From contig JAPEUI010000125.1 in NCBI GenBank assembly GCA_026025075.1, forward strand, positions 1 through 45,884: a stretch of 45,884 nucleotides of DNA, written 5' to 3'. This DNA comes from Vezdaea acicularis. Lineage: Eukaryota. How positions within the stretch are numbered: position 1 is the first letter of the stretch; every line of letters begins with the position of its first letter. Made by a program: the position numbers and the translations under genes. Below are positions 21,291 to 24,455 of this stretch, in pieces. The notes beneath the pieces were generated by a model that was given only the letters and a program-made list of their open reading frames with translations, was not told where the DNA came from and did no database searches.

Positions 21291-21700
21291 GTCTTAAGGT
21301 AGAAACAATTGTGGATGAAAATACATCTCACGACATAATTCTTCACACCACTCTGCACAGTCGTGATGATTTCAGTCATGTTTGTGCTCGATGCCCCGGA
21401 TTTAACCGAAAGGCTGGCTCATCAATCACACAAACCTTGGAACTTCTCACGCATCCAGTAACGAGCTCAGTCACCCACGCCAAACGAAAGCTCATTACTC
21501 CTCCAGGTACACGTGCTGATGTCCCTGCAGTAGTTTTGGTAATTGTTGCTCTTCGTTATGCGCTAGTGACTGTTTCTCACAAGACACAATTTGTCGTAGA
21601 CTGGCCCTCCAATTATCAACCACACTTTTTGTCGACAACCGGAATTGACAATCCTTCCACGCTGAGCAAGTAGTCGAAGGACTACTGAGAGTCTGCAATT

Positions 21701-22427
21701 ATGGATCACGCAAAGCTTGCGAAGATGCAGGCACAAGTGCGCATTGGTGAGCAATTCTAAGATATCCCGCTTGGTCTCAGTCTACGAAATTGAATGCAAG
21801 GCACATTTACTAACCTAAATGATTGCCTCTAGGGTACCCAACCCCCTTATTTCTATATTTGCCAAAGCTGTGCTTAAATGATTCGGGAGCTTGATATCCC
21901 AAAATTAAGCACGGTTTGCTCAATAAATAGCTAACATTTCTACACAATTTAGGGGCAAAGGCACGCCTCGCCGGAAGCAGAAGAAAGTCCACAAGAGTGC
22001 TGGAACAGATGATAAGAAGCTTCAAACTTCCCTCAAAAAGCTCAACGTGCAGCCAATACAAGCAATTGAAGAGGTGAACATGTTCAAAGAAGATGGAAAC
22101 GTTATCCATTTCGCCGCTCCCAAAGGTCAAAAGCATCCTGGCTCCGAAACTCCACAAAGGGGAAAAGCTAACGTACAACCAGTCCATGCCTCAGTACCAT
22201 CTAACACCTTCGCTATCTATGGCAACGGAGAAGATAAAGAACTCACTGAACTTGTTCCCGGCATACTTAACCAGCTCGGTCCGGACTCGCTAGCATCGTT
22301 AAGGAAGCTAGCCGAAAGCTATCAGAGCATGTCGAAGGAAAAGGACGGCGAGAAGAAAGAGGGAGAGGATGACGACGATATTCCTGACCTAGTCGCAGGA
22401 GAGAACTTTGAGAGCAAAGTCGAGTAA
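21701..22427 (+). CDS. EGD1: Nascent polypeptide-associated complex subunit beta (BTF3/EGD1)
   Basis: Exons 21701-21746, 21833 (single G), 21953-22125 and 22183-22427 give [96 protein letters not shown]. Confidence 0.96.
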
Positions 22428-22700
22428 GGTACCGAAGTTTGTCAATCGATGTGGACGCAACAAAATAGTCTCCTGTTTGGGGGGTAAGCGCATCTCTTCA
22501 GGCTAGTGTGGTAACGAGTTTACTTCTCAGGTATACTCATGATAGCGTCACAAATGTATTTTGAGCCTTAAGCTGTCATAATGCAGATGCCAAGCACGCT
22601 GAACCACCAGGACCAAAAGCATCCGCCTGCACCTATTTACTCCCGCGGCGTCTGCACCCCTTAAACGTAGAAATTCTAGGTAATTTCAAGTCTGCTCTCA

Positions 22701-24158
22701 CTATTCTTCTTTCAACCCACAAGTATCCCAACCCAGCCAAGAATCCACCCACCATGCAACCTTCCACCAAAGCGTCGCCTTATCCCAATCAAACTCCCCA
22801 GTGTCTTTCCTGGGCACGCTATCTCCTATCACGTCCGTTGTAAACCACGTGGGCATCTGCGCTGTCATTCGTTGCCACCATGTCGGTTGAGGGAGGAGCG
22901 CCTGCTCCGCTGGAAGAAGGACGGCACGTCGTGCTGAGGGAATACGGGTGCAGAACTCACTGGATGTAGTGCTGCCTGTAGAGGTTGTGGGCTTGCTGAC
23001 GCCGTTCGGCTGTCTTACAAGACCAGGACTGTTTGGAAGTGTGTGTGGCTCGGTGGAAAGGGATGGATAGGGAATAAGTCCCGGCGGTGGAGGAGAAAGA
23101 CCGTTTGTGGCTGTTGCAGAGGATGATGTGCTGGATGTAGAATCTGAAAAGGGGGGTTCGAAGCTACGAGAAGATGAGTTCAGGTTACTTGTCGTATGAG
23201 ATCGACCAAGATTGCTTCTCCTAGAACCGAGCAGGCTGCTCCCTTCACCAGGAGGCTCGGAGGTTGTCCGCGGTATTGTGTGCATTGAAGTAGATGGCGC
23301 AAGACTTCGTAGCGCTGATGGTTTCTTTGCATACTTTGTCGCCTCAGGAGTCCCGACCAGAATAGGTACATCCTGTGGTGGGCCCGCACCATGGTAATAC
23401 TCCGCTACTACTACATGGCCATAAACCTCCACAGGCGAAAGGGCGACAGCGCGCTCAGCAACTGCTGCAGACTCAAATGTGATCTTGATCCAGCATTCAC
23501 CCCCTGCATAATGACTGGTTTTCCTACTTTCTGCTGCAGTTGTTGGACCATACTTTCCGATAGAGCTGCTAAAGGATGCTGCTTTGTATTTGCGCTGTGA
23601 AGGGGGCGCATCCCGTGGGTAGTCTTCGCATATTCGTCCGGCGATTTGCTCATACTTGTCGATAGCAGCCCACTGCTTATCCGCATGGAAGCCGTAAAGG
23701 ATGACCTCTGTTGGCTCCTTTTGGACAGAATCGGGGGTTACGATAGCGGTAGCAGAGGAATCAATACTTGTCAGGGCTTGAGTTGAAGAACGGCCAAAAG
23801 AGGGTGTTTTTGAGAGTGACTGCGACATGCGACGAGAAGTAGAGAGAGGCTCATCTTCGCTTGGGAGAGACTGGCCGCGTGCTAATGTTTTGGACCAAGC
23901 TTCTTCGAAGCCTTCAAGAGAGGAGTCCGTCTTTTTGGCTGGGGTGGCTGAGCGTGCCTTGGTATGGTGTGGTTTGGACGTTCCAAAAGGGCCCCATTCT
24001 TCAACAGTCTTAGAGGTGGATGCTCTACCAATATGAGTAAGTAGATATAACAGAAGACGAATTAATGATTCATACCGGCTGGAGATCTCAGCATAGGGTT
24101 TCCTCTTGCCATTCTCATCAAGGGCTCGTTCGTCCTCAGGGACAGCATGGAGTTGCAT
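22701..24158 (-). CDS. NUP53: Nup53/Nup35-type RRM nucleoporin
   Basis: 485-aa ORF including a probable in-frame 51-nt intron (24025-24075). MPPN/RRM-like core EPTEVILYGF..QWAAIDKYE..GRICEDYPRD..GGECWIKITFES, and a Trp-rich amphipathic C-terminus. Confidence 0.7.
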   Translation of the reverse strand: MQLHAVPEDERALDENGKRKPYAEISSRYESLIRLLLYLLTHIGRASTSKTVEEWGPFGTSKPHHTKARSATPAKKTDSSLEGFEEAWSKTLARGQSLPSEDEPLSTSRRMSQSLSKTPSFGRSSTQALTSIDSSATAIVTPDSVQKEPTEVILYGFHADKQWAAIDKYEQIAGRICEDYPRDAPPSQRKYKAASFSSSIGKYGPTTAAESRKTSHYAGGECWIKITFESAAVAERAVALSPVEVYGHVVVAEYYHGAGPPQDVPILVGTPEATKYAKKPSALRSLAPSTSMHTIPRTTSEPPGEGSSLLGSRRSNLGRSHTTSNLNSSSRSFEPPFSDSTSSTSSSATATNGLSPPPPGLIPYPSLSTEPHTLPNSPGLVRQPNGVSKPTTSTGSTTSSEFCTRIPSARRAVLLPAEQALLPQPTWWQRMTAQMPTWFTTDVIGDSVPRKDTGEFDWDKATLWWKVAWWVDSWLGWDTCGLKEE

Positions 24159-24455
24159 GATCGATTTCGGCTTTGTATCGATTTCTAGAGTTATGACATA
24201 GAGTAATCAGGACTAGCAAGCCAACTCTAATGCTACAGTAGTGTGAAGTGGCTTGTGCGAGACAGAAGAGGTTTTGTGTGGTGGAGAATCTTGAAGATGT
24301 ATCCGTCGGTCTTCTTCAAGAGTAAACACGAAATTCGGTGACCCAGAGAAGCTGCAGTAGCAATTTCGCATATTCCTAGATTTGGGATTCGGCCTATTCA
24401 CCATGCACTCCCCCAATCCTTAAACTTCCGCAACAAAGGGCACCATATTTTCAGG

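Follow-up and report, generated by a model that had tools for sequence, protein, structure and literature searches.

The closest described parallels to the locus analysed here come from a plant gene and from fungi. In Arabidopsis, the gene APC11 has a constitutive exon of a single nucleotide between two spliceosomal introns, which was at first mis-annotated (Guo and Liu 2015, PMC4674806); this case shows that the spliceosome can handle an exon of one base. In Fusarium, a one-nucleotide exon of the P450 gene CYP621A is described by its authors as the second known case and the first from a fungus (Nelson and Syed 2026, PMC12940212); it was inferred by comparative alignment, with an intron-poor relative as length marker, and junction-spanning reads support it. 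A third system is the stwintron, where one intron lies inside another and splits the outer intron's donor, branch site or acceptor; the two are spliced out completely, and nothing between them stays (Fekete et al. 2017, PMC5587772). The present analysis concerns a stretch of 45,884 nucleotides (nt) of Vezdaea acicularis DNA (contig JAPEUI010000125.1; "the window" below means this whole stretch), in which the gene for the protein NAC-beta very probably contains an exon consisting of the single base G21833. Like the exon of CYP621A, it belongs to a fungal gene, stands in the context AG-G-GT as the middle base of a glycine codon within a conserved motif, lies between flanking exons that are one base out of phase, and is usually missed by gene models.

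The gene is NAC-beta (EGD1/BTF3), which encodes the beta subunit of the ribosome-associated NAC chaperone, here of a filamentous ascomycete (Pezizomycotina). The proposed layout is as follows:

21701..21746, plus strand: exon 1 of NAC-beta (EGD1/BTF3 homologue), 46 nt, with ATG at 21701; its last base is base 1 of a glycine codon
21747..21832, plus strand: intron A, 86 nt; donor GTGAGC (21747-52), TACTAAC (21808-14), acceptor CTCTAG (ends 21832)
21833..21833, plus strand: proposed one-base exon G, the middle base of the glycine codon G(21746)-G(21833)-G(21953)
21834..21952, plus strand: intron B, 119 nt; donor GTACCC (21834-39), branch site GCTAAC (21930-35), acceptor TTTAG (ends 21952)
21953..22125, plus strand: exon 3, 173 nt, from base 3 of the split glycine codon to HFAAPK plus G; first part of the NAC domain
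22126..22182, plus strand: intron C, 57 nt, phase 1; donor GTCAAA, branch site GCTAAC, acceptor AACCAG
22183..22427, plus strand: exon 4, in which TC completes a valine codon, followed by HASVPSNTF... to ...ENFESKVE; stop TAA at 22425-22427

The 3' end of exon 1 reads ATTG and runs into the donor GTGAGC, while exon 3 opens with G GGC AAA GGC at 21953. Joined directly, these two exons are one base short, and the frame shifts and reaches a stop after 56 codons; with G21833 kept, the split glycine codon becomes GGG, and both the frame and the motif RIGGKGTxRRK are restored. The resulting four-exon coding sequence comprises 465 nt and encodes 154 residues with no internal stop. A canonical AG and a canonical GT flank the single G, and introns A and B each possess a donor, a branch site and an acceptor of their own, the branch site of intron A lying 19 nt and that of intron B 18 nt before the end of the respective AG. 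The window does hold other choices that keep the frame: a donor at 21870 would give a 37-nt exon and lengthen the protein by 12 residues, and there are acceptors whose last base is 21930, 21960 or 21987, the second of which is free of stops and yields VRIGTPRRK; among all the frame-keeping choices in the interval, only G21833 gives RIGGKGT. The initial annotation of this stretch had placed the one-base exon between two complete GT-AG introns, and all of its coordinates prove correct to the base; the arrangement it described is supported by comparative DNA, by contigs of relatives that resemble complementary DNA (cDNA) and by the intact 154-residue product, on which the return of the conserved motif was confirmed, as was the frameshift that skipping of the G had been said to cause. 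An ab initio survey of the window for introns, aimed at the donor preferences of this organism, returned 17 candidates, many of them overlapping alternatives and three with a G at donor position +5, and was dropped as too unspecific.

Several comparisons identify the product. The exon-3 peptide matches the Pfam NAC profile (PF01849) at 56.1 bits (cutoff 21.3) over profile positions 1-38 of 57, the remainder of the domain spanning intron C. A protein search with the downstream reading frame, a query that contained intron read-through, returned 2598 relatives, and the best named matches are NAC subunit beta proteins at 75-81% identity. Against six correct full-length orthologues, the spliced product shows 133-141 identical residues among 153-154 aligned (about 90%), with no gap over the first 40 columns, and the related loci have an exon-1 peptide of the same type. 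The residues G, K, G, T, P, R, R and K of the N-terminal motif are nearly invariant in 79 aligned relatives, and we take RIGGKGTxRRK to be the ribosome-binding region of NAC-beta.

Conservation of the layout was followed in metagenome contigs, where a scan gave 310 confirmed relatives, the best 80 of which were used and classified by script. Two introns with AG-G-GT at this codon are present in 55 of these 80 loci; a further 21 loci read RIGGKGT uninterrupted, three (L048, L079 and L080) carry just one intron here, of phase 1, and one (L055) is cut off inside the interval. AGGGT thus occupies the homologous position in 55 of the 58 assessable intron-bearing loci. The 55 two-intron loci represent 45 distinct sequences in 34 groups, between which the introns share no appreciable sequence. 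Scored with the first pattern, 41 of 43 distinct intervals (the window included) show the full layout, with CTRAY as branch site 11-20 nt ahead of the internal AG; the two exceptions are L035, which combines AGGGT with a non-standard branch site, and the single-intron locus L048. Intron A ranges from 53 to 305 nt across the scored intervals and intron B from 68 to 302 nt. The best nucleotide identity to the window among the 80 loci is 74-78%, and no cDNA of the same species was found among them.

All 41 scored intervals, and all 35 representatives (the window and one locus from each group), retain a G. By contrast, the base that follows the last AG varies (14 A, 14 C, 12 T and one G among the 41 intervals), as the third position of a GGN glycine codon would be expected to do. 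Around the retained base, numbered 0, the representatives are invariant at A-2, G-1, G0, G+1 and T+2; position -3 is C or T in 34 of them, 32 have A at +3 and 34 have G at +5, and the neighbouring positions vary freely. In 30 of the 35, no other AG comes between branch site A and the internal AG. The composite "CTRAY, 5-16 nt, AGGGT" occurs three times in 136,000 strand-nt of locus flanks, or about 0.005 times per 206 nt; both strands of the 45.9-kilobase (kb) window hold five occurrences, of which the G21833 site is one.

The donors of this gene differ in how closely they are held. A G at +5 is present in 40 of 41 A donors and in 40 of 41 B donors, the commonest B donor being GTAAGC (20 of 41 intervals), and in 32 of 48 intron C donors from the window and its relatives. 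Because of this difference, the splice sites on either side of the single base seem to be under tighter constraint than an ordinary one, the present organism being the exception. The intron C donor of the window, GTCAAA, has C at +3 and lacks the G at +5, like 16 of the 48 homologous donors.

Five genomic contigs of up to 15 kb (L056, L068, L071, L077 and L078) have no intron at this codon; the uninterrupted codons lie at about position 1510, or at 140-310 in the shorter contigs, and the coding sequence is still interrupted further down, so that the lineage either lost both introns or never had them. Since these intron-free loci and the single-intron loci L048, L079 and L080 encode the two glycines directly, one base is needed at the junction of the two-intron genes.

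Sequences that resemble transcripts of relatives read the junction in the same way. Among the 21 uninterrupted loci, 16 have no third intron either and measure 1.0-2.8 kb, so they look like cDNA, and all 16 read [RIV]GGKGT without interruption. Within the 119 best protein matches of the 2598 (86 named by NCBI and 33 unnamed, the window's own excluded), 17 of the 33 unnamed proteins read RIGGKGT, and 16 of these 17 come from contigs of 0.9-2.5 kb, the size of a messenger RNA (mRNA). A direct comparison is offered by the cDNA-like L067, which has genomic counterparts in L057, L059, L061 and L062 at 96-98% identity: the mRNA predicted from L061 differs from L067 at two of 101 positions when the G is kept and at 29 of 100 when it is skipped. 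The same junction disposes of transcriptional slippage and ribosomal frameshifting as sources of the extra base, since L067 carries the additional G and there is no homopolymer at the L067/L061 junction from which slippage could supply it. No skipped or shortened junction was seen among 38 uninterrupted sequences (21 loci, 16 of them cDNA-like, and 17 unnamed proteins), a tally that frameshifted products would escape if degraded. Separately, L055 (positions 1-131) is a contig of 1109 nt that starts inside intron B, 126 nt before the acceptor, and lacks both AGGGT and the third intron; it may be a partly spliced transcript with intron B retained, and it was not used as evidence.

Gene models in the databases cope badly with this region. 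In the 86 NCBI-named models among the best matches, the stretch between VRI and GKGTPRRK is disordered, and 82 of them are wrong at the junction. Only four have the correct RIGGKGT, while 46 fill the junction with other residues, 14 contain one extra residue (RIG[T/I/E/K/H]GKGT), 14 have a different N-terminus, four lack GKG (RIGTPRRK), three lack one G (RIGKGT) and one begins beyond the motif. Five classes are represented among the faulty named models: Orbiliomycetes, Leotiomycetes, Eurotiomycetes, Dothideomycetes and Lecanoromycetes. The extra-residue proteins with VRIG[T/I/E/K/H]GKG are P0013, P0030, P0039, P0040, P0042, P0076, P0081, P0084, P0093, P0095, P0107, P0112, P0115 and P0118; judging from their codons, this artefact fits a splice made at the second GT within a donor GTNNGT, a displacement of four bases that repairs the frame, joined to the single base following the last AG. 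Of the 120 best models, named and unnamed, in the group closest to L079, 91 read GGKGT uninterrupted. Predictors thus seem able to handle the single ordinary intron seen in L079 and L080, which suggests that the one-base exon is their point of failure in the ascomycete group.

The correctness of the DNA itself was assessed by comparing contigs of four DNA runs with positions 21600-22500. Run X1 covers the whole of this segment and X2 covers 21763-22500, and each shows one substitution (T>C) and no indel. X6 derives from a relative about 92% identical, with 70 substitutions and three indels over 896 bases; at least 24 of the substitutions and none of the indels fall within the 206-nt interval. 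Among the differences listed for X6 there is none at 21822-21840 (CTCTAG-G-GTACCC), and this core is probably identical there. X6 keeps TACTAAC, has GTAAGT as donor A and has GCTGAC, still of standard form, as the second branch site; its listed substitutions fall in both introns, one of them at 21868, adjoining the alternative donor at 21870.

Several points weigh against the one-base exon in this particular organism and should be stated before the rival explanations are considered. The B donor of the window, GTACCC, is the only one without a G at +5 among 41 intervals (35 representatives), and GTACCC is expected to pair poorly with U1. Only 23 of the 35 representatives have no other AG between the chosen branch site B and the final AG. 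X1 may be the source of the window itself and X2 is another sample of the same study, and the core is probably, though not certainly, identical in X6. Inclusion of G21833 in this organism is deduced from its relatives rather than observed, and comparison with cDNA has a blind spot: the retained base is a G, the donor also begins with G, and cDNA therefore looks the same for a one-base exon and for a single intron that starts one base later.

That blind spot favours a rival model, a single long intron with a non-canonical boundary, for example 21748-21952 (TG...AG) or 21747-21951 (GT...TA), to which the internal AG-G-GT would be irrelevant. The mRNA would be the same, and no cDNA, including the comparison of L067 with L061, separates the two models. 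Such an intron would nevertheless leave unexplained why AG-G-GTRHG varies little or not at all across all 35 representatives, drawn from 34 groups whose introns are otherwise unrelated, and why 41 of 43 distinct intervals have a CTRAY branch site 11-20 nt ahead of the internal AG, when chance composites are expected at only about 0.005 per 206 nt; moreover, TG-AG, GT-TA and AT-GT are not known as spliceosomal intron classes. We regard this alternative as highly improbable. An error of sequencing or assembly could also mimic the layout, if one G had been lost from the GGGG run at 21952-21955 of an ordinary phase-1 intron. Homopolymer errors are common on some sequencing platforms, and a fifth G would indeed create a normal junction, TTTAG/GG GGC. 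The initial annotation had named an extra G at 21953 as what resequencing might reveal; it was looked for in the other DNA runs, and the contigs of X1, X2 and X6 show no indel, so that a missing G in the run is unsupported. In addition, 55 of 55 two-intron loci have one base between the last AG and GGN-AAR-GGN, and that base is mostly A, C or T, with no homopolymer. This explanation is scarcely credible.

The weak B donor lends itself to two further readings, in which the main or a large part of the transcript would be spliced differently. GTACCC might be unused here, the main mRNA being made with the acceptor CAAAG ending at 21960 to give VRIGTPRRK without GKG; the junction is in frame and without stops, donor B is the only one of 41 to lack the +5 G, and four NCBI models of other fungi were built with this very junction. 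The product would lack a GKG that is nearly invariant in the family and that appears, as GGKGT, in 38 of 38 uninterrupted sequences of relatives. The acceptor exists only where lysine is encoded by AAA, and AAG leaves three bases and a broken frame (as read from the intervals, without a count), so it is not a conserved feature. X6, for its part, has no listed change in AG-G-GTACCC despite at least 24 other differences in the interval, and the same gene uses a second donor without a +5 G, GTCAAA. Taken together, these observations make use of the 21960 acceptor very unlikely. Alternatively, the gene could be a decaying copy or one controlled by unproductive splicing, with many transcripts skipping the G, through removal of 21747-21952 in one step, or using the donor at 21870, to give frameshifted or aberrant products. 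The skipped form has its stop 50 nt before the last exon junction and is for that reason a possible target of nonsense-mediated decay, the alternative 37-nt exon is in frame and free of stops, and donor B is weak here. Set against this are four intact exons encoding a product about 90% identical to its orthologues, splice signals without a listed change in X6, a substitution in X6 at 21868, beside the alternative donor, and the cDNA-like contigs of relatives, which show no skipped form, although degraded forms would be missed in them. This last reading is extremely improbable. Our confidence is strong that the single base G21833, flanked by two complete U2-type introns, is a real and constitutive exon.

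If G21833 is such an exon, its inclusion would require two separate splicing reactions, each on an intron with a GT donor, a CTAAC-type branch site 18-19 nt before the AG and a YAG acceptor, and the G would be ligated on both sides to form the glycine codon GGG. The mRNA junction expected with G21833 kept is ATTGGGGGCAAAGGC. Acceptor A and donor B touch the same base, and two spliceosomes could therefore probably not sit together on this site; the introns would then have to leave stepwise. Introns A and B are thus probably removed one after the other, in a manner resembling recursive splicing but with one base kept. Either order of removal would leave a usable site, ...GG/GT for donor B or AG/G for acceptor A. 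It is conceivable, if doubtful, that the one-base exon is under selection as a dosage valve for NAC-beta, in which ordered two-step removal is combined with skipping of the G into a decay-prone mRNA; such a valve may extend over ascomycete moulds and lichen fungi. In a related reading, the intron pair may be a frozen intermediate of one-base intron sliding, composed of an old phase-1 intron, which basidiomycete-like loci share, and a younger intron one base downstream.

For the origin of the pair, the single-intron loci are informative. L048, L079 and L080 each have just one intron, of phase 1, where intron A lies, and after it come two bases of the glycine codon. Intron A is therefore probably the older of the two, with intron B a probable later insertion, one base downstream, in the ascomycete line; none of the loci had intron B alone. 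Among named fungi, those closest to L079 form mushrooms (Suillus, Laccaria and Pisolithus, for example), and we take them to be basidiomycetes. The single intron of L048 lies at 170-262, and those of L079 and L080 lie about 110-130 nt before the GGKGT codons; the N-terminus of L048 differs, reading MSDVQERLKKLG...

On the other strand downstream, a 501-codon open frame (22701-24206, minus strand), rich in serine, threonine and proline, is arranged tail to tail with the NAC-beta gene and matches no Pfam family at E <= 0.01.

The layout touches on two other forms of multi-step splicing, both of which can be set apart from it. Recursive splicing, with exons of zero length, proceeds through ratchet points AG/GT in long introns of Drosophila and vertebrates. 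The likeness lies in an acceptor immediately followed by a donor, in a 5' splice site at the end of the new exon and in stepwise removal; recursive sites keep no base and belong to very long introns, whereas one base is kept here and the introns measure 53-305 nt. The locus does not belong to that class, as one G essential for the frame stands between AG and GT. With stwintrons, including the alternative [D1,2]/[A2,3] type, the present introns share their occurrence in Pezizomycotina, the involvement of two U2 introns, nested or adjacent, the consecutive reactions, splice sites within one base of each other and a link to one-base shifts of intron position (PMC5587772). The initial annotation had also mentioned stwintrons, a label that does not hold in its strict definition: the base after intron A is G and not T, which leaves no split donor, the base before intron B is G and not A, which leaves no split acceptor, and neither intron splits a signal of the other, the one base being retained.

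There remain the two published one-base exons. APC11 is a plant gene whose exon was tested with green fluorescent protein (GFP) fusions in Arabidopsis and rice (PMC4674806), whereas the NAC-beta case is known from sequence alone. The CYP621A case is confined to one genus and its close kin, with 24 genes, and to a rarely expressed P450 (PMC12940212), whereas NAC-beta is a housekeeping chaperone; the NAC-beta layout recurs in 34 groups with unrelated introns, and errors in its named models reach across five classes of Pezizomycotina. No paper describing a one-base exon in NAC-beta was found in the literature searched. The NAC-beta exon is an addition to a known and very small class, is far more widely conserved than the published fungal case, and brings to that class the breadth of a housekeeping gene as its host. 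Should the layout hold in laboratory moulds, it would become possible to ask how the spliceosome deals with an acceptor and a donor that meet at one common base, which of the two introns leaves first and whether skipping serves for control.

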